From: a virus
Taxonomy: Duplodnaviria; Heunggongvirae; Uroviricota; Caudoviricetes
DNA: 6,354 bases
Direction: 5' to 3' (one strand)
Virus record (IMG/VR): IMGVR_UViG_2778261419_000005
Position numbers and translations under genes: made by a program. The notes beneath the pieces are model-generated. The model had not been told where the DNA came from. It did not search any database and worked only from the letters and a program-made list of their open reading frames with translations. Shown here one piece after another: positions 1 to 6,354 of the stretch (positions within the stretch are counted from its first letter, which is position 1; each line of letters starts with the position of its first letter).

Positions 1-423
1 TCACTGCGCCACGTCCTGAAAATTACCCTGATAGAAAGCCAGTATGCGCTGCATAACTTCGCTCTTCCGGCACTCGCGACAGATTATGTTTAGGCGACTG
101 TCGTAGCGACGTATTTCTCCGTCAGGTGATGACCAGATAAGGTCCGGATCAACCACAGCAGGTTTCTTCACCTTTGCCCTCGAGAGTTTTTTGCGGGCGT
201 TTTGCCAGTCCTTACGCGCCTGTTCAGAGGGGAATAACCCGTAGCCGGAGTTGTATACATCGCCACTGGCTACCAGCTCTCTGGCAAGAACGCTCATCAG
301 ATATCTAGTCGCACCTGTTTTAGCTTCCAGTTGCCGTAACGTCTCACGGCCGCTCTGGCGCACGAGTTCCACCACCTGCCATTTAATTTTTTCCCGCTCT
401 TCTTGTGTAAAAACTTTTGCCAC
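1..423 (-). CDS. Hypothetical protein (140 aa), possible helix-turn-helix DNA-binding protein
   Basis: Complete minus-strand ORF: GTG start at 423-421 preceded by a G-rich Shine-Dalgarno (AAGGGGGA, reverse complement of 425-432, 4-nt spacer), TGA stop at 3-1. Segment ETLRQLEAKTGATRYLMSVLAREL looks HTH-like; C-terminal CxxC (CRECR). No family recognised with confidence. Confidence 0.55.
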   Translation of the reverse strand: MAKVFTQEEREKIKWQVVELVRQSGRETLRQLEAKTGATRYLMSVLARELVASGDVYNSGYGLFPSEQARKDWQNARKKLSRAKVKKPAVVDPDLIWSSPDGEIRRYDSRLNIICRECRKSEVMQRILAFYQGNFQDVAQ

Positions 424-463
424 AAGTCCCCCTTAAAATTACCTCATGACCTGAAATCAACAC

Positions 464-1096
464 TTATCCTCTGAAACCAGGCGGAATTTCTGTATCCGGT
501 TCAGAAATATGATTAACACAACGCTGTACAGGTGAACGTCCCAGGCGGATGACCAGTTCGTCCCATTTTTCGCGGAGCTTTGACGGGCTCATGATGTTTT
601 TTACCCAGAATGGATCTCGCTGAACCCGACCAAACATTTCGCAAATTTGTCTGTGGCTTCTGCCATCCAGCATCCGCATTGTGCGCACGTCATTGGCCCA
701 GGCAGTCCAGTTAGGCTCTTTTGGTCGCATGATCTCGCCATCATCACTGGCTGCCTGTTCGTAGAGACCCACGATCCGCCCCCAGATCCACTGCGCACAC
801 GCCAAATCCTCCCTGCTACCCCACTGGCGTTTTTTCGCACTAAACACAACCGCGTCGGAGTTCCGGGTTAAAGAATCCTGTTCAGTCGTCTGCGGGTCCG
901 GTTGCGAAGCTTCCGGACGAAAAGTGTTTTTATTCTCTGTAGTAATCTCTGTTGTATTCTCTGTAAGATCATCAGGCCATTTTGACCCGATGACATTGGG
1001 TCGTTTTGAACCAATGGAGCGTTTCATTTTGACCTCTTCCATCGTGTCATTTTGACCTGATGGAGCGGCGCATTTTGAACCGATGGATTCGCTCAA
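464..1096 (-). CDS. Replication protein with DnaT-like (primosomal protein I-like) C-terminal domain; possibly the C-terminal part of a split lambda-O-like initiator
   Basis: Minus-strand ORF with TAA stop at 466-464. C-terminus ...VNHISEPDTEIPPGFRG matches my recollection of the E. coli DnaT C-terminus (...VNTVSEPDSQIPPGFRG), and the preceding ~80 aa align plausibly with the DnaT C-domain. N-terminal ~60 aa are low-complexity and encoded by the repeat arrays. Start uncertain: ORF-track start is TTG at 1096; in-frame ATG at 1042; in-frame ATG at 1027 has a strong SD (GGAAGAGG, 5-nt spacer). Confidence 0.6.
   Translation of the reverse strand: MSESIGSKCAAPSGQNDTMEEVKMKRSIGSKRPNVIGSKWPDDLTENTTEITTENKNTFRPEASQPDPQTTEQDSLTRNSDAVVFSAKKRQWGSREDLACAQWIWGRIVGLYEQAASDDGEIMRPKEPNWTAWANDVRTMRMLDGRSHRQICEMFGRVQRDPFWVKNIMSPSKLREKWDELVIRLGRSPVQRCVNHISEPDTEIPPGFRG
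930..964. repeat. AT-rich block with three 12-bp-period direct repeats (TATTCTCTGTA / TAATCTCTGTT / TATTCTCTGTA) flanking the iterons
   Basis: Read directly at 930-940, 942-952 and 954-964; encodes the low-complexity peptide TENTTEITTENKNT on the minus strand. Position relative to the iterons matches an origin-type AT-rich unwinding region. Confidence 0.45.
978..1093. repeat. Five iteron-like direct repeats, consensus CATTTTGA(A/C)C(C/T)GATGGAGCG, period 23-24 bp; candidate replication origin
   Basis: Copies begin at 978, 1002, 1025, 1048 and 1071 on the plus strand (CATTTTGACCCGATGA; CGTTTTGAACCAATGGAGCG; CATTTTGACCTCTTCC; CATTTTGACCTGATGGAGCGGCG; CATTTTGAACCGATGGATTCGC). They lie inside the 5' coding region of the DnaT-like ORF, immediately downstream of the initiator N-domain ORF. 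Confidence 0.55.
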
Positions 1097-1107
1097 TTTG
1101 CCACCAT

Positions 1108-1407
1108 CTAAAAGTAGAAATTGGTCATATCGCGCTTTGATTTATTGAGCTTTTCACAACGCAAAAGCCCCAGCGTTTTCAGACTTGCAAACGCGCGCTT
1201 TAACGTTGACTCTGACCAGAATGGGAACTGTTCCAGCCATTGTTCCGTTGTGTTATAAATCCAGCGAACACCATCACATTCCATGCCGGAGTTGGTATCT
1301 CTCAACCAGTAGTGCAGTTGTTGCAAAACAATGGCTTCGTTTAAGCCAATTTTCATTGCCAGCTGCGTGTTTATAACCAGTGGGCGTTCAGCAAAAAGAA
1401 GGCTCAT
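1108..1407 (-). CDS. Replication initiator N-terminal winged-helix DNA-binding domain protein (O-like / replisome-organiser-like)
   Basis: Minus-strand ORF with TAG stop at 1110-1108. Preferred start is ATG at 1407-1405 with SD-like GGATGGA 3 nt upstream; the ORF track extends to a TTG at 1461. Product MSLLFAERPLVINTQLAMKIGLNEAIVLQQLHYWL...WSESTLKRAFASLKTLGLL has the wHTH signature common to phage/plasmid initiator N-domains. Different reading frame from the downstream DnaT-like ORF. Confidence 0.55.
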   Translation of the reverse strand: MSLLFAERPLVINTQLAMKIGLNEAIVLQQLHYWLRDTNSGMECDGVRWIYNTTEQWLEQFPFWSESTLKRAFASLKTLGLLRCEKLNKSKRDMTNFYF

Positions 1408-1651
1408 AATTCCATCCAGCTTTTTGTTGGTATTGCTGTCGATACGCAAGCTTGAAAGCAATTGCTTTTTCTATAAGTTCGTCAGTTTCACGATCCACTA
1501 CGGCAGGATCAGCAAAAAGCAGTCCGGACTCCACCACATCGCCATATTCTTTGTTTAACCCGGCGATCATGCACGTGATGCTTTTTCCGTCAGTAATTTC
1601 ACGATACAACCTGAAATCACTAATCCGGATAGCCTCCATAATCGCAGGCAC
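1388..1651 (-). CDS. Hypothetical protein (83-87 aa); possibly a 5'-truncated gene remnant
   Basis: Protein-like composition, but only GTG (1651) or a weak-context ATG (1639) as start. The frame is open upstream to 1705 without any ATG, as expected for a 3' fragment of a longer gene. Overlaps the next gene by ~20 nt. TGA stop at 1390-1388. Confidence 0.3.
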   Translation of the reverse strand: MPAIMEAIRISDFRLYREITDGKSITCMIAGLNKEYGDVVESGLLFADPAVVDRETDELIEKAIAFKLAYRQQYQQKAGWNYEPSFC

Positions 1652-1773
1652 TAGCGCCGTGAACTTTTCACGCTTATCCCTGGTGTCGATATCCGGCGTT
1701 AATTGTTAACTGGTTAACGTCACCTGGAGGCACCAGGCACTGCATCACAAAATTCATTGTTGAGGACGCGATA
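1652..1773. promoter_or_regulatory. Divergent intergenic control region with candidate operator palindrome GTTAAC-TG-GTTAAC (1705-1718) and adjacent CCTGG...CCAGG dyad (1723-1737)
   Basis: Only sizeable non-coding gap between the two oppositely transcribed gene sets; dyad symmetry read directly. No confident -35/-10 assignment. SD GAGGA at 1762-1766 serves the first plus-strand gene. Confidence 0.3.
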
Positions 1774-1962
1774 ATGAAAACGTTATTACCAAACGTTAAT
1801 ACGTCTGAAGGTTGTTTTGAAATTGGTGTCACTATCAGTAACCCAGTATTTACTGAAGATGCCATTAACAAGAGAAAACAAGAACGGGAGCTATTAAATA
1901 AAATATGCATTGTTTCAATGCTGGCTCGTTTACGTCTGATGCCAAAAGGATGTGCACAATGA
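1774..1962 (+). CDS. Small hypothetical protein (62 aa), first gene of plus-strand operon
   Basis: ATG at 1774 with SD GAGGA 7 nt upstream; TGA stop at 1960-1962 overlaps the next ATG (ATGA), indicating translational coupling. Basic protein with hydrophobic/amphipathic C-terminus (LLNKICIVSMLARLRLM). Confidence 0.55.
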   Translation: MKTLLPNVNTSEGCFEIGVTISNPVFTEDAINKRKQERELLNKICIVSMLARLRLMPKGCAQ

Positions 1963-2150
1963 ATTCAGCATTTGTGCTTGTTCTGACAGTTTTTCTTGTT
2001 TCCGGAGAGCCAGTTGATATTGCAGTCAGTGTGCACAGGACAATGCAGGAGTGTATGACTGCAGCAACCGAACAGAAAATTCCCGGTAACTGTTACCCGG
2101 TCGATAAAGTTATTCACCAGGATAATATCGAAATCCCGGCAGGTCTTTAA
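1959..2150 (+). CDS. Small exported/membrane protein (63 aa), YebW-like (DUF1482-like) by recollection
   Basis: ATG at 1959 with SD AAGGA 9 nt upstream; the ORF-track start at 1905 has no SD. Hydrophobic N-terminus AFVLVLTVFLVSG (signal peptide or TM helix), two Cys (C31, C44); size and pattern resemble E. coli YebW as I recall it. TAA stop at 2148-2150. Confidence 0.6.
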   Translation: MNSAFVLVLTVFLVSGEPVDIAVSVHRTMQECMTAATEQKIPGNCYPVDKVIHQDNIEIPAGL

Positions 2151-2243
2151 AACAGTTCCGTAATAAATATCCGGTTTCATTCTTATATGCCAGCAATGGC
2201 AGGGATTTGTTCATCCTTAAATCTGTCATGAGGTTAAAACAAA

Positions 2244-4715
2244 ATGAGTAAAGTCTTTATTTGCGCCGCTATTCCTGACGAACTGGCAACAAGGGAAGAA
2301 GGCGCTGTGGCTGTAGCCACAGCCATTGAAGCTGGCGACGAACGCCGTGCTCGAGCAAAATTTCACTGGCAGTTCCTGGAACATTATCCGGCTGCTCAGG
2401 ACTGCGCTTATAAATTTATTGTCTGCGAGGATAAACCTGGCATACCCCGCCCTGCCCTCGATTCATGGGATGCTGAATATATGCAGGAAAACCGCTGGGA
2501 TGAGGAGTCTGCTTCTTTTGTCCCGGTTGAGACTGAATCCGATCCGATGAACGTCACTTTTGACAAGCTGGCCCCTGAAGTACAGAACGCTGTCATGGTT
2601 AAGTTCGACACATGTGAAAACATCACCGTTGATATGGTTATTAGCGCACAGGAATTGTTGCAGGAAGACATGGCAACATTCGACGGACATATCGTTGAAG
2701 CGTTGATGAAAATGCCAGAAGTTAACGCCATGTATCCGGAGCTTAAGTTGCACGCCATTGGGTGGGTTAAGCATAAATGTATTCCTGGTGCTAAATGGCC
2801 CGAAATTCAGGCAGAGATGCGCATCTGGAAAAAACGTCGCGAAGGTGAACGCAAGGAAACCGGAAAATACACGTCTGTTGTTGATCTCGCCCGCGCCAGA
2901 ACCAATCAACAGTACACTGAAAATTCAACAGGAAAAATCAGCCCGGTCATTGCTGCCATTCATCGCGAATACAAGCAGACATGGAAAACACTGGATGACG
3001 AACTGGCCTACGCTCTCTGGCCTGGTGATGTGGATGCCGGAAACATTGACGGCAGCATCCATCGCTGGGCAAAAAAAGAAGTTATCGACAACGACCGCGA
3101 AGACTGGAAGCGTATCTCGGCATCAATGCGCAAACAGCCTGATGCCCTTCGCTACGACCGCCAGACTATTTTTGGCCTTGTCCGTGAGCGTCCGATCGAC
3201 ATTCACAAAGATCCCATAGCACTGAACAAATATATCTGCGAATACCTGACGACAAAGGGCGTGTTTGAGAATGAAGAAACAGACCTGGGCACTGTTGATG
3301 TTCTCCAGTCATCAGAAACACAAACTGATGCAGTGGAAACTGAGGTATCTGATATCCCAAAAAATGAAACCGCGCCGGAAGCTGAACCATCTGTAGAGCG
3401 TGAGGGGCCGTTCTATTTCCTCTTCGCAGATAAGGACGGAGAAAAATACGGTCGCGCAAACAAACTTTCTGGTCTGGATAAGGCACTGGCTGCTGGCGCC
3501 ACTGAAATCACAAAAGAAGAATATTTTGCCCGAAAAAATGGCACATACACGGGCTTACCGCAAAATGTAGATACCGCTGAAGATTCAGAACAACCAGAGC
3601 CGATAAAAGTTACCGCTGACGAAGTAAACAAAATTATGCAGGCAGCCAATATCAGCCAGCCTGACGCCGATAAGTTGCTTGCTGCATCACGTGGTGAATT
3701 TGTTGAAGGGATTAGTGACCCGAATGATCCGAAATGGGTTAAGGGGATCCAGACCCGCGATTCTGTGAACCAGAACCAGCATGAATCGGAACGGAACTAC
3801 CAAAAAGCGGAACAAAACAGCACAAATGCGTTACAAAACGAGCCAGAAACGAAACAGCCTGAACCAGTGGCGCAACTGGAAGTGGAAAAAGTCTGCACCG
3901 CCTGCGGTCAGACCGGCGGCGGCAACTGCCCTGATTGTGGCGCGGTGATGGGCGACGCAACATACCAGGAAACATTCGATGAAGAGTATCAGGTTGAAGT
4001 TCAGGAAGATGATCTGGAGGAAATGGAAGGCGCTGAACATCCACACAAGGAGAACACTGGCGGCAATCAGCATCACAATAGCGATAATGAAACTGGCGAG
4101 ACGGCAGATCACTCAATTAAGGTGAACGGTCATCACGAAATCACATCCACCAGCAGGACGTGTGACCATCTAATGATCGACCTTGAAACCATGGGAAAAA
4201 ATCCTGATGCCCCGATCATCTCAATAGGTGCAATATTTTTCGATCCGCAAACCGGAGATATGGGACCGGAATTTAGTAAGACTATCGATCTGGAAACTGC
4301 TGGCGGAGTCATTGATCGGGACACCATTAAATGGTGGCTTAAGCAATCACGCGAAGCGCAATCTGCCATTATGACCGATGAAATCCCGTTAGATGATGCA
4401 CTGTTACAATTGCGGGAATTTATCGACGAAAACTCCGGTGAATTTTTTGTTCAGGTTTGGGGAAATGGAGCCAACTTCGACAACACGATTTTGCGCCGTT
4501 CATACGAACGGCAGGGGATCCCCTGCCCGTGGCGTTACTACAACGATCGCGATGTACGCACAATCGTTGAGCTGGGGAAAGCCATAGACTTCGATGCCAG
4601 AACGGCTATTCCATTCGAAGGTGAGCGCCATAATGCACTTGATGACGCCCGTTACCAGGCAAAATACGTTTCAGTTATCTGGCAAAAACTGATCCCGAGT
4701 CAGGCTGATTCTTAA
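2244..4715 (+). CDS. Large modular protein (823 aa) with C4 zinc ribbon and C-terminal DEDDh (DnaQ-like) 3'-5' exonuclease domain
   Basis: ATG at 2244 with SD GAGG ~10 nt upstream; TAA stop at 4713-4715. Exo motifs read directly: Exo I MIDLET (D646/E648, nt 4179-4187), Exo II GNGANFD (D746, nt 4479-4481), Exo III HNALDDARYQAKY (H796/D801, nt 4629-4646). CxxC-x7-CxxC zinc ribbon at aa 551-565 (nt 3894-3938). N-terminal ~340 aa have no motif I recognise; aa ~341-630 are acidic/polar low-complexity linkers. Confidence 0.88.
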   Translation: MSKVFICAAIPDELATREEGAVAVATAIEAGDERRARAKFHWQFLEHYPAAQDCAYKFIVCEDKPGIPRPALDSWDAEYMQENRWDEESASFVPVETESDPMNVTFDKLAPEVQNAVMVKFDTCENITVDMVISAQELLQEDMATFDGHIVEALMKMPEVNAMYPELKLHAIGWVKHKCIPGAKWPEIQAEMRIWKKRREGERKETGKYTSVVDLARARTNQQYTENSTGKISPVIAAIHREYKQTWKTLDDELAYALWPGDVDAGNIDGSIHRWAKKEVIDNDREDWKRISASMRKQPDALRYDRQTIFGLVRERPIDIHKDPIALNKYICEYLTTKGVFENEETDLGTVDVLQSSETQTDAVETEVSDIPKNETAPEAEPSVEREGPFYFLFADKDGEKYGRANKLSGLDKALAAGATEITKEEYFARKNGTYTGLPQNVDTAEDSEQPEPIKVTADEVNKIMQAANISQPDADKLLAASRGEFVEGISDPNDPKWVKGIQTRDSVNQNQHESERNYQKAEQNSTNALQNEPETKQPEPVAQLEVEKVCTACGQTGGGNCPDCGAVMGDATYQETFDEEYQVEVQEDDLEEMEGAEHPHKENTGGNQHHNSDNETGETADHSIKVNGHHEITSTSRTCDHLMIDLETMGKNPDAPIISIGAIFFDPQTGDMGPEFSKTIDLETAGGVIDRDTIKWWLKQSREAQSAIMTDEIPLDDALLQLREFIDENSGEFFVQVWGNGANFDNTILRRSYERQGIPCPWRYYNDRDVRTIVELGKAIDFDARTAIPFEGERHNALDDARYQAKYVSVIWQKLIPSQADS

Positions 4716-4726
4716 TGTTCAACTGT

Positions 4727-4758
4727 CGCCGGTTGTGACTGGTATTCTGCAACCGGCG
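4727..4758 (+). other. RNA stem-loop (9-bp perfect stem CGCCGGTTG / CAACCGGCG, 14-nt loop) between the exonuclease gene and xis
   Basis: Inverted repeat read directly at 4727-4735 and 4750-4758; no downstream U-tract, so not a canonical intrinsic terminator; could be a processing or attenuation element. Confidence 0.3.
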
Positions 4759-4787
4759 CTCGTCTAATGTAAGAGATAAAGAAATCG

Positions 4788-5039
4788 ATGAGCGAAGTAA
4801 TCATGATTGTCTCTCCCGGCAAATGGGTATCCGAAGAGCAGTTAATTGCGCTGAAAGGAATAAAAAAAGGTACGTTAAAAAAGGCCCGGGAAAAATCGTT
4901 TATGGAAGGAAGGGAATATAAGCATGTCGCTCATGACGGTATGCCATGGGATAACAGCCCATGCTTTTACAACCTGGAAGAAATTGATCGCTGGATTGAG
5001 CGCCAGGCATCAGCGAGACCAAGACGTCATCTTACTTGA
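4788..5039 (+). CDS. xis: Excisionase-like protein (Xis)
   Basis: 83-aa ORF immediately upstream of and co-oriented with the integrase; purine-rich SD (AAGAGA) upstream of ATG 4788 (alternative ATG at 4803); N-terminal KWVSEEQLIALKGIKKGTLKKAR and C-terminal YNLEEIDRWI fit the small excisionase pattern of enterobacterial prophages (recollection, not searched). Confidence 0.65.
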   Translation: MSEVIMIVSPGKWVSEEQLIALKGIKKGTLKKAREKSFMEGREYKHVAHDGMPWDNSPCFYNLEEIDRWIERQASARPRRHLT

Positions 5040-5073
5040 CTAAAAGCCACACTAACTAATGAGAGAAGTTGAA

Positions 5074-6354
5074 ATGAAATATCCGACAGGCGTGGAAAAC
5101 CATGGAGGGAAATTACGTATCTGGTTTGTTTATAAAGGCGTAAGAGTCAGGGAAAATCTGGGGGTTCCTGACACAGCAAAAAACAGGCGCGTTGCAGGTG
5201 AACTACGCGCCTCTGTTTGTTACGCAATAAAAACTGGTGTTTTCGACTATGCAAAACAGTTTCCCTCCTCACGCAATCTGGAAAAATTTGGTGAGGCCCG
5301 ACAAGATTTAACCATAAAAGAACTGGCTGAAAAATTTCTGGCACTGAAAGAAACTGAAGTCGCAAAAACATCACTCAACACATACCGTGCCGTCATCAAA
5401 AATATCCTGAGCATAATCGGTGAAAAAAATCTTGCCTCATCGATTAATAAAGAAAAATTACTGGAGGTTCGTAAAGAGCTACTGACTGGATACCAGATCC
5501 CCAAAAGTAACTATATTGTTACACAACCAGGGAGATCGGCTGTAACTGTAAATAATTACATGACAAATCTTAACGCCGTGTTCCAGTTTGGTGTTGATAA
5601 CGGTTACTTGGCAGATAACCCGTTTAAGGGGATCTCGCCATTAAAGGAATCAAGAACCATTCCGGATCCTCTTTCGCGGGAGGAATTCATCCGTCTTATC
5701 GATGCGTGCAGAAATCAGCAAGCCAAAAATTTATGGTGTGTTTCTGTTTATACTGGCGTTCGCCCTGGTGAGCTGTGTGCACTTGGATGGGAGGACATAG
5801 ATCTGAAAAATGGAACAATGATGATCAGGAGAAATTTAGCAAAAGACCGTTTCACGGTACCAAAAACACAGGCGGGAACCAATCGGGTCATTCATCTTAT
5901 TAAGCCAGCAATCGACGCTCTCCGGAGTCAGATGACATTAACGAGACTGAGCAAAGAGCATATCATTGATGTTCACCTCAGAGAGTATGGCAGAACAGAA
6001 AAACAAAAATGCACCTTTGTTTTTCAACCTGAAGTGTCAGCGAGAGTAAAAAATTATGGTGACCATTTTACCGTTGACTCAATAAGGCAGATGTGGGACG
6101 CAGCGATAAAACGTGCCGGACTCCGCCATCGAAAATCATATCAGTCGAGACATACTTATGCCTGCTGGTCGCTGACAGCTGGTGCTAACCCGGCATTTAT
6201 AGCAAACCAGATGGGCCATGCAGATGCGCAAATGGTATTTCAGGTATACGGAAAATGGATGTCTGAAAACAATAATGCACAGGTAGCTTTGTTAAATACA
6301 CAGTTAAGCGAGTTTGCCCCAACCATGCCCCATAACGAAGCAATGAAAAATTAA
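5074..6354 (+). CDS. int: Phage-type tyrosine integrase / site-specific recombinase
   Basis: Start chosen at ATG 5074 (SD GAGAGAAG upstream); ORF-track start 5059 lacks an SD. N-terminus MKYPTGVENHGGKLRIWF resembles the arm-binding N-terminus of Rac-type prophage integrases as I recall them; C-terminal catalytic region has tyrosine-recombinase signatures (RHTYACW...GANPAFIANQMGH...QVYGKW). TAA stop at 6352-6354 coincides with the window end. Confidence 0.93.
   Translation: MKYPTGVENHGGKLRIWFVYKGVRVRENLGVPDTAKNRRVAGELRASVCYAIKTGVFDYAKQFPSSRNLEKFGEARQDLTIKELAEKFLALKETEVAKTSLNTYRAVIKNILSIIGEKNLASSINKEKLLEVRKELLTGYQIPKSNYIVTQPGRSAVTVNNYMTNLNAVFQFGVDNGYLADNPFKGISPLKESRTIPDPLSREEFIRLIDACRNQQAKNLWCVSVYTGVRPGELCALGWEDIDLKNGTMMIRRNLAKDRFTVPKTQAGTNRVIHLIKPAIDALRSQMTLTRLSKEHIIDVHLREYGRTEKQKCTFVFQPEVSARVKNYGDHFTVDSIRQMWDAAIKRAGLRHRKSYQSRHTYACWSLTAGANPAFIANQMGHADAQMVFQVYGKWMSENNNAQVALLNTQLSEFAPTMPHNEAMKN

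Follow-up and report, generated by a model that had tools for sequence, protein, structure and literature searches.

In the Qin family of lambdoid prophages, the two arms normally enclose a lambda-type immunity region (cI-OR-cro plus PL/OL). In Escherichia coli, dicA and dicC form a lambda-like switch, with DicA in the role of CI, DicC in that of Cro, dicCp corresponding to PR and dicBp to PL (PMC10448788). DicA represses dicBp, which is located upstream of ydfA, and the dicBF operon is expressed as one polycistronic transcript that is processed to DicF, with no internal promoter detected; because induction of these genes inhibits growth, dicBp was studied, also in a dicA deletion background, in strains from which the operon had been deleted (PMC10448788). 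YdaT proteins, which are CII analogues, consist of an N-terminal HTH (POU-like) domain and a C-terminal tetramerisation/oligomerisation helix (PMC9986795), and the STnc100 RNA family has been described as prophage-associated (bioRxiv 10.64898/2026.05.13.724894). Among phages, PhiR42_1 (PV340562), HannyBb and mEp460 possess cI/cro (dicA/dicC), a full-length cII-like ydaT, an intact O gene and structural genes.

The DNA described here (the window, 6,354 nucleotides) is collinear with these three phages, with 95-99% identity on both sides of a short gap between two divergent gene sets, but it lacks 2,105 bp, its O gene is frameshifted and the immunity region is absent. This short divergent gap is, with high confidence, the scar of a 2,105-bp deletion by which a Qin-type defective prophage lost its repressor switch.

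Identity of the locus

The window corresponds to the integrase-proximal (left-operon) arm of a Qin-family lambdoid cryptic prophage of E. coli, adjoining rspB. Every full-length match, in E. coli chromosomes and a few lambdoid phages, was made up of two pieces spanning about 8.46-8.48 kb, versus 6.35 kb for the window. The best match, NZ_CM194533.1 (hereafter L001), is undeleted and was used as the coordinate reference. Its annotated gene order is DUF977, replication protein O (split), a YdaT-family protein, DicC, an HTH protein (DicA), ydfA, ydfB, ydfC and dicB, followed by ydfD, the exonuclease, the excisionase, the integrase and then rspB. PhiR42_1 exhibits the same order, under the labels cI, Cro and cII, and rspB is annotated 3' of int in L001 as well as in L003 and L011-L013.

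Pfam analysis of the window identified DicB, DUF1482/YdfD, exonuclease, excisionase, integrase and DUF977 domains, and left two minus-strand ORFs unassigned. On the plus strand, the cell-division inhibitor gene dicB (1774-1962; Pfam DicB, E=1.9e-40; annotated WP_000854559.1) and the DUF1482 lysis gene ydfD (1959-2150; PF07358, E=3.9e-26) are both intact. They are followed by the gene of an 823-aa exonuclease, the full-length form of K-12 YdfE (2244-4715; Rv2179c-like 3'-5' exonuclease domain, E=2e-67, with YdfE_N/YdfE_C domains also listed), an excisionase gene (4788-5039; DUF1233, E=1.6e-31) and a tyrosine integrase gene of the IntQ type (5074-6354; Arm-DNA-bind_2 and Phage_integrase), the frame of which is open from 5059.

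On the minus strand, the DUF977 gene (1-423; PF06163, E=5e-29; annotated in L001 and L002) is known as LygF in PhiR42_1 and lies 3' of the replication gene in the rightward, PR-like operon. Alignment to the O gene of PhiR42_1 and the annotation of L001 both identified the replication gene at 464-1407, as two ORFs (464-1096 and 1108-1407). Compared with the intact 966-nt O of PhiR42_1, a 22-bp deletion near 1113 splits the reading frame. The gene is also annotated as split in L001, a genome that still has the immunity region; since this frameshifting deletion is common to both, the prophage was defective before the switch was lost. Four iteron-like CATTTTGA(C/A)C repeats, at 978, 1025, 1048 and 1071, lie inside the O gene, placed as for a lambda-type origin.

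Two observations concern the DNA beyond this arm. A sok antitoxin RNA was detected at L001 1056-1227 (Rfam, 104 bits), upstream of the region matching the window and within the same prophage remnant, where IS fragments and pseudogenes adjoin. In GCA_018023135.1, QueH and KwaA/KwaB (Kiwa defence) genes occupy 7852-10365, just beyond DUF977, which suggests that this position is a cargo slot in these prophages.

By its site, integrase arm, dicB, ydfD and leader, the window is thus a member of the Qin/dicB prophage family. It has the tyrosine integrase and excisionase at the prophage end adjoining rspB (Pfam, 4788-6354), and dicB and ydfD behind a conserved leader identical to that of K-12. The Qin (Kim) prophage of K-12 shares the site adjoining rspB, the integrase arm and the dicB leader, and its dicB, ydfD, exonuclease (ydfE), xis and int are 97-99% identical to those of the window. 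The two have decayed differently: K-12 Qin keeps dicC, dicA, ydfABC and DicF, which the window lacks, whereas the window keeps the 3' part of ydaT, O and DUF977, which K-12 Qin lacks; likewise, K-12 has an IS2 in ydfE and a truncated intQ, whereas the exonuclease of the window is full-length.

A single deletion separates the window from its intact relatives

Base-by-base comparison with L001 revealed 100% identity over window 1-1691 (L001 3001-4691) and over window 1690-6354 (L001 6795-11459). The two sequences differ solely by a clean deletion of 2,105 bp (L001 4692-6796), with its junction at 1690/1691 (GATA|TC), the 2-bp TA at 1690-1691 being common to both parental sites. A sequence-only reading of this DNA had noted the absence of a repressor and proposed, as one of two options, a cryptic prophage that had lost its immunity region; that option is borne out, and the loss can be mapped to the base.

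The deleted segment contains ydaT codons 1-73, dicC (cro-like) and dicA (cI-like), both within L001 4893-5609, ydfA/B/C and the DicF sRNA (Rfam, 76.7 bits, at L001 6653-6704), according to the L001 annotation and Rfam. It also includes the PR-like dicCp, the PL-like dicBp and the 5' half of the leader RNA described below. Three operators of the form TGTTAGA-N4-TCTAACA (L001 5135, 5646 and 5682) all fall in this segment, the first being overlapped by a promoter-like match (10/12) for dicC; this operator was found nowhere in the window, even with up to three mismatches allowed. Neither an ORF nor a Pfam match for a divergent HTH repressor pair (cI/cro-like dicA/dicC) was detected in the window, nor any Rfam match to DicF. 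The earlier remark that no regulator gene flanks the gap therefore agrees with the Pfam results for the window ORFs, and the comparison with intact relatives that it had called for places cI/cro between the arms in PhiR42_1, HannyBb and mEp460.

An assembly or scaffolding artefact was considered, given that the closest complete genome, NZ_CM194533.1, is identical yet undeleted and that the window's own sources are draft contigs. However, two natural draft assemblies, GCA_012908425.1 and GCA_028436325.1, contain the window letter for letter, which means that the arrangement is natural. The identical junction occurs in two independent drafts and in the complete genome of MLI105 (L003, L012 and L013), the latter in a SNP background that differs from the window's, and related junctions occur in 187 complete genomes. 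An artefact consequently has a negligible probability. The sequence-only reading had regarded homologues with the identical junction and a functional 87-aa gene as an argument against its interpretation; the identical junction does exist in MLI105 and the two drafts, but they represent the same deletion allele, and the ydaT remnant of MLI105 is annotated as a pseudogene and not as a functional gene.

The remaining minus-strand sequence next to the junction (1388-1691) corresponds to residues 74-173 of the 173-residue YdaT, as established from its identity to L001, in which the full-length gene spans 4388-4909 (Pfam YdaT_toxin, 23.9 bits). The break lies in codon 73 and leaves these residues without their native start. 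The 87-aa ORF at 1388-1651, which begins with GTG, is the longest start-bearing piece of this remnant, in a frame that stays open upstream to 1705 and meets a stop at 1706-1708. The 5' truncation that had been proposed from this open frame is thus confirmed by the full-length protein of the otherwise identical L001. No Pfam match, YdaT_toxin included, was obtained with the 87/105-aa window product. Judging from the domain layout of YdaT proteins, most of the DNA-binding part has probably gone from the remnant. A PDB sequence search with YdaT gave no match, the Qin YdaT being too diverged to align to the solved structure. The ydaT gene of E. coli C is also broken, at a point unrelated to that of the window.

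With the exception of O, all retained ORFs are intact, which could reflect either a recent deletion or continued use.

The gap and the dicB leader

The 122-bp gap (1652-1773) ends where dicB starts, at 1774, and contains GTTAAC-TG-GTTAAC (1705-1718) as well as CCTGG (1723-1727) and CCAGG (1733-1737). The sequence-only reading had described these palindromes, the dyad, the 87-aa ORF and a gap of about 120 bp, all of which were found in place when the sequence was checked. Its view of the gap as a divergent promoter/operator region did not hold. Alignment to L001 shows the gap to be ydaT coding sequence, of which the last 100 codons remain, fused to the final 84 nt of the dicB leader, and not a promoter region; window 1692-1773, on the plus strand, is identical to L001 6797-6878 and represents the 3' part of the native leader. 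In intact relatives, dicBp lies about 1.1 kb upstream of the dyads, which are part of the transcribed leader.

By motif statistics, the GTTAAC repeat does not stand out: of 200 shuffled sequences, 39 gave at least one match with no more than two mismatches, the window site being an exact match. Its weight comes from conservation. A 50-nt block comprising both dyads (TCCGGCG...CACCAGGCAC, window 1692-1741) is nearly invariant, with at most one substitution per sequence in the relatives examined. It is kept in K-12, PPompW, vB_EcoS-640R1 and two E. coli prophages that are only 82-89% identical in their flanks, as well as in phage Evi, where kil is found in place of dicB just downstream. With kil in this position in Evi, the leader block behaves as a separate conserved module.

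RNA folding predicted two hairpins separated by one base, hairpin 1 at 1695-1721, which includes GTTAAC-TG-GTTAAC, and hairpin 2 at 1723-1737 (CCTGG-AGGCA-CCAGG); these are followed by the dicB ribosome-binding region and a third predicted hairpin. The fold as a whole, over 101 nt, had a z-score of -1.7. In Rfam, the intact leader (L001 6702-6911) matched STnc100 (RF02076) with 34.4 bits (E=5.5e-6), below the gathering score of 47, versus 20.5 bits for the window copy, in which about the 3' half of the element is left. From the DicF terminator to just inside dicB, the intact leader aligns end to end with positions 1-206 of this model of a prophage sRNA (STnc100/PasD type). Both central hairpins are reproduced with compensatory changes, the consensus CCGGG/CCCGG being CCUGG/CCAGG here, and the AGGCA loop of hairpin 2 is identical to that of STnc100. 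This is a resemblance with compensatory pairs and not membership at the curated threshold; moreover, STnc100 is an sRNA family, whereas the element here precedes dicB (kil in phage Evi) as a 5' leader and is not a demonstrated free sRNA. The leader dyads would thus fit as the two hairpins of a predicted STnc100-like RNA element, not as operators.

The other option of the sequence-only reading was a helper-dependent or satellite-like element, in which a repressor from another locus, binding GTTAACNNGTTAAC, would control divergent promoters within 1652-1773. The lack of a regulator gene in the window and the near-invariance of the dyad block are in keeping with it, as is the fact that many E. 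coli carry several dicB-type prophages (median of 2 matching places per genome), the DicA-like repressors of which could act in trans. However, the window is a precise deletion derivative of a prophage that had its own switch, the promoters and the TGTTAGA-N4-TCTAACA operators went along with the repressor, and nothing is left for a repressor to act on. The dyads lie inside a transcribed leader far from the promoter in all intact relatives, they match the RNA family better than an operator, and the gap has no promoter-like hexamers. Nothing in the scar resembles the lambda-type operators of the Qin-family switch. As a DicA-type operator, GTTAACNNGTTAAC was rejected, having only its TGTTA/TAAC ends in common with TGTTAGA-N4-TCTAACA and a spacing 2 bp shorter; binding of DicA or DicC to the leader palindrome, GTTAACTGGTTAAC, is not expected. 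Satellite hallmark genes are also absent, and the genes present are those of a lambdoid early-left arm: the window contains no compact satellite/PICI-like regulatory module with a helper-responsive repressor, replication module and helper-hijacking genes. Control in trans is therefore very unlikely. The locus illustrates that an inference from absence, here of a repressor, can be right while the operator reading that accompanies it is wrong.

Transcription after the loss of the switch

In terms of mechanism, the scar arose by a single illegitimate deletion of 2,105 bp, with 2 bp of common TA, fusing the 3' part of ydaT to the 3' part of the dicB leader. This event took the whole switch (dicC, dicA, dicCp, dicBp and the three operators) together with ydfA/B/C and DicF, and orphaned the genes on both sides from their native promoters. 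On one side dicB, ydfD, the exonuclease gene, xis and int, and on the other the remnants of ydaT and O and the DUF977 gene, would then be silent or read only adventitiously. The element is presumably locked in, with no induction, no DicF and no DicA immunity. A deletion of dicA only would derepress the toxic dicBF operon; survivors would therefore be expected to lose dicBp (or dicB/dicF) as well, as the window allele does.

A crude consensus scan found no sigma-70-like hexamer pair in the gap (1652-1773) on either strand, and none on the plus strand upstream of dicB; in the intact locus, dicBp itself escaped the same scan. A weak or non-canonical promoter may be present in or near the scar. 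According to PMC10448788, Cam et al. proposed in 1988 that a promoter lies upstream of dicB. Near the scar, a single promoter-like match was located, at 2151-2122 on the minus strand (TTTAAA-18-TATTAT, 9/12). Starting just beyond the 3' end of ydfD and overlapping the last codons of this gene, it faces left, antisense to ydfD and dicB; in principle, it could feed transcription into the side of the ydaT and O remnants.

Recurrent breakpoints and GATATC junctions

Deletion alleles of this region were found in 187 genomes in all. Six junction types were distinguished in natural strains, with three breakpoints reused: L1 (L001 4691; window 1690/1691), L2 (L001 4631; window 1630/1631) and R1 (L001 6795). 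The L1-R1 junction is that of the window and MLI105. L2-R1 was observed in MSB1_9I as well as in a large group of near-identical genomes, UK_Dog_Liverpool among them; this group accounted for 53 of the best 60 matches. The remaining types were L2-R2 (R2 at 6645, DicF kept) in the LR-58-1 group, L1-R5 (R5 at 5025, dicA kept) in GCA_019981815.1, L3-R1 in MB06234, formed via a 5-bp CTGTA repeat, and L1-R4 in GCA_018023135.1, formed via CCTGGTG..TA, with R4 in the exonuclease gene.

In four of these types (L1-R1, L2-R1, L2-R2 and L1-R5), a top-strand GATA is joined to TATC through the common TA, giving GATATC; at the L2-R1 junction, the product is a 12-bp palindrome, CCGGATATCCGG. L1 was paired with three right ends, R1 with three left ends, and L2 with two right ends in addition to the truncation of ydfX in K-12. 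This pseudogene, a 5' remnant of ydaT, was cut at the same TA as L2 but with the opposite side kept (K-12 MG1655, L023, 6363-6364, equivalent to window 1630-1631), its partner sequence being GGTA|TAGGCTCC versus GGATA|GCCTCC at L2. Only 2 of the 14 GATA and 3 of the 11 TATC sites of the region were used, and both left sites read GATAGCCT. SNPs in the flanks showed that the same junction can lie in several backgrounds, and that one background can have more than one junction. This pattern favours recurrence over descent. The constant GATATC junction and the reuse of three breakpoints across unrelated strains constitute an unexplained regularity in prophage decay.

R1 coincides with the 5' edge of the nearly invariant leader block. 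As a boundary between mosaic modules it was rejected for most relatives, since alignment with L001 showed homology running on beyond R1, on its upstream side, in five out of six intact relatives; strain A36 diverges exactly there. The sequence of E. coli A36 (L026) directly left of R1 (…AAATAC|TCCGGCG) is unlike that of every other relative, so that R1 is also a natural variation boundary in that strain, and A36 carries a diverged DicF-like sequence at about 560-700.

A sequence-specific process, such as a nuclease, topoisomerase or recombinase acting at 5'-GATA-3' steps, could repeatedly remove the immunity/DicF module, and would be compatible with the reading of the gap as a deletion scar. 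In its favour are the four junction types giving GATATC, the use of L1, L2 and R1 with several partners each, the distribution of junctions among and within SNP backgrounds, the small share of GATA and TATC sites used, with GATAGCCT at both left ones, and the fact that the other deletions in these prophages occurred at ordinary 5-9-bp microhomologies. Against this, only about 10 independent events are known, and neither a candidate enzyme nor a longer common motif was found. In IMG/VR, the predicted junctions L1-R2, L2-R5 and 6481-Rx gave 0 relevant matches (20 16-mer matches were unrelated), although this was a weak, low-power test. Recombination between prophages could also spread a junction, though with a tract of less than about 70 bp. 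On balance, such a process is rather unlikely.

Several known activities were compared with the breakpoints and rejected. Secondary-site recombination by Int was not favoured, the att core (L001 ~11490-11512, as inferred from where phage/prophage homology ends) having no GATA or TATC motif. PhiR42_1 encodes a serine invertase of the Pin/Hin/Gin type. The gix/hix sites of such enzymes have an AAACC-NN-GGTTT core, which the breakpoints appear to lack; like the att core, Pin-type crossover sites seem unlike the breakpoints, which counts against a sequence-specific process. XerCD/dif, Rci/sfx, Cre/lox, the TrwC nic site, Chi, the gyrase consensus, IS target sites and EcoRV exhibited, by eye, no more than partial and unconvincing resemblance. 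Template switching or hairpin bypass predicts inversion junctions or loss of a repeat arm, unlike the observed product. Our search of the literature on deletion hot spots returned nothing relevant.

More specific, and somewhat more doubtful still, is the proposal that Qin-type prophages carry fragile or targeted 5'-GATA-3' sites, at which a sequence-specific cut-and-join activity would repeatedly excise the immunity/DicF module and always leave GATATC; these sites would be the two in ydaT (GATAGCCT), the 5' edge of the leader block, and one site each in dicC and directly upstream of DicF.

Significance for Qin-type prophages

The reading of the locus as the scar of a deletion makes the loss of the switch an ordinary step of prophage decay in a known system. 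All of the genes and RNAs involved have already been described, and the window represents a further decayed copy of a cryptic prophage that has been well studied. The recurrent deletions with GATATC junctions are the only part that might repay further work, and they are cheaply testable. If targeted sites of this kind did exist, prophages would be domesticated recurrently, and in a quasi-programmed manner, by losing the switch; such sites would also explain the point at which ydfX is truncated in K-12. Carriers of the L1-R1 allele are natural strains that are null for dicA, dicC and DicF but positive for dicB, and as such they are relevant to the effects of DicB and DicF on division, metabolism and phage resistance.
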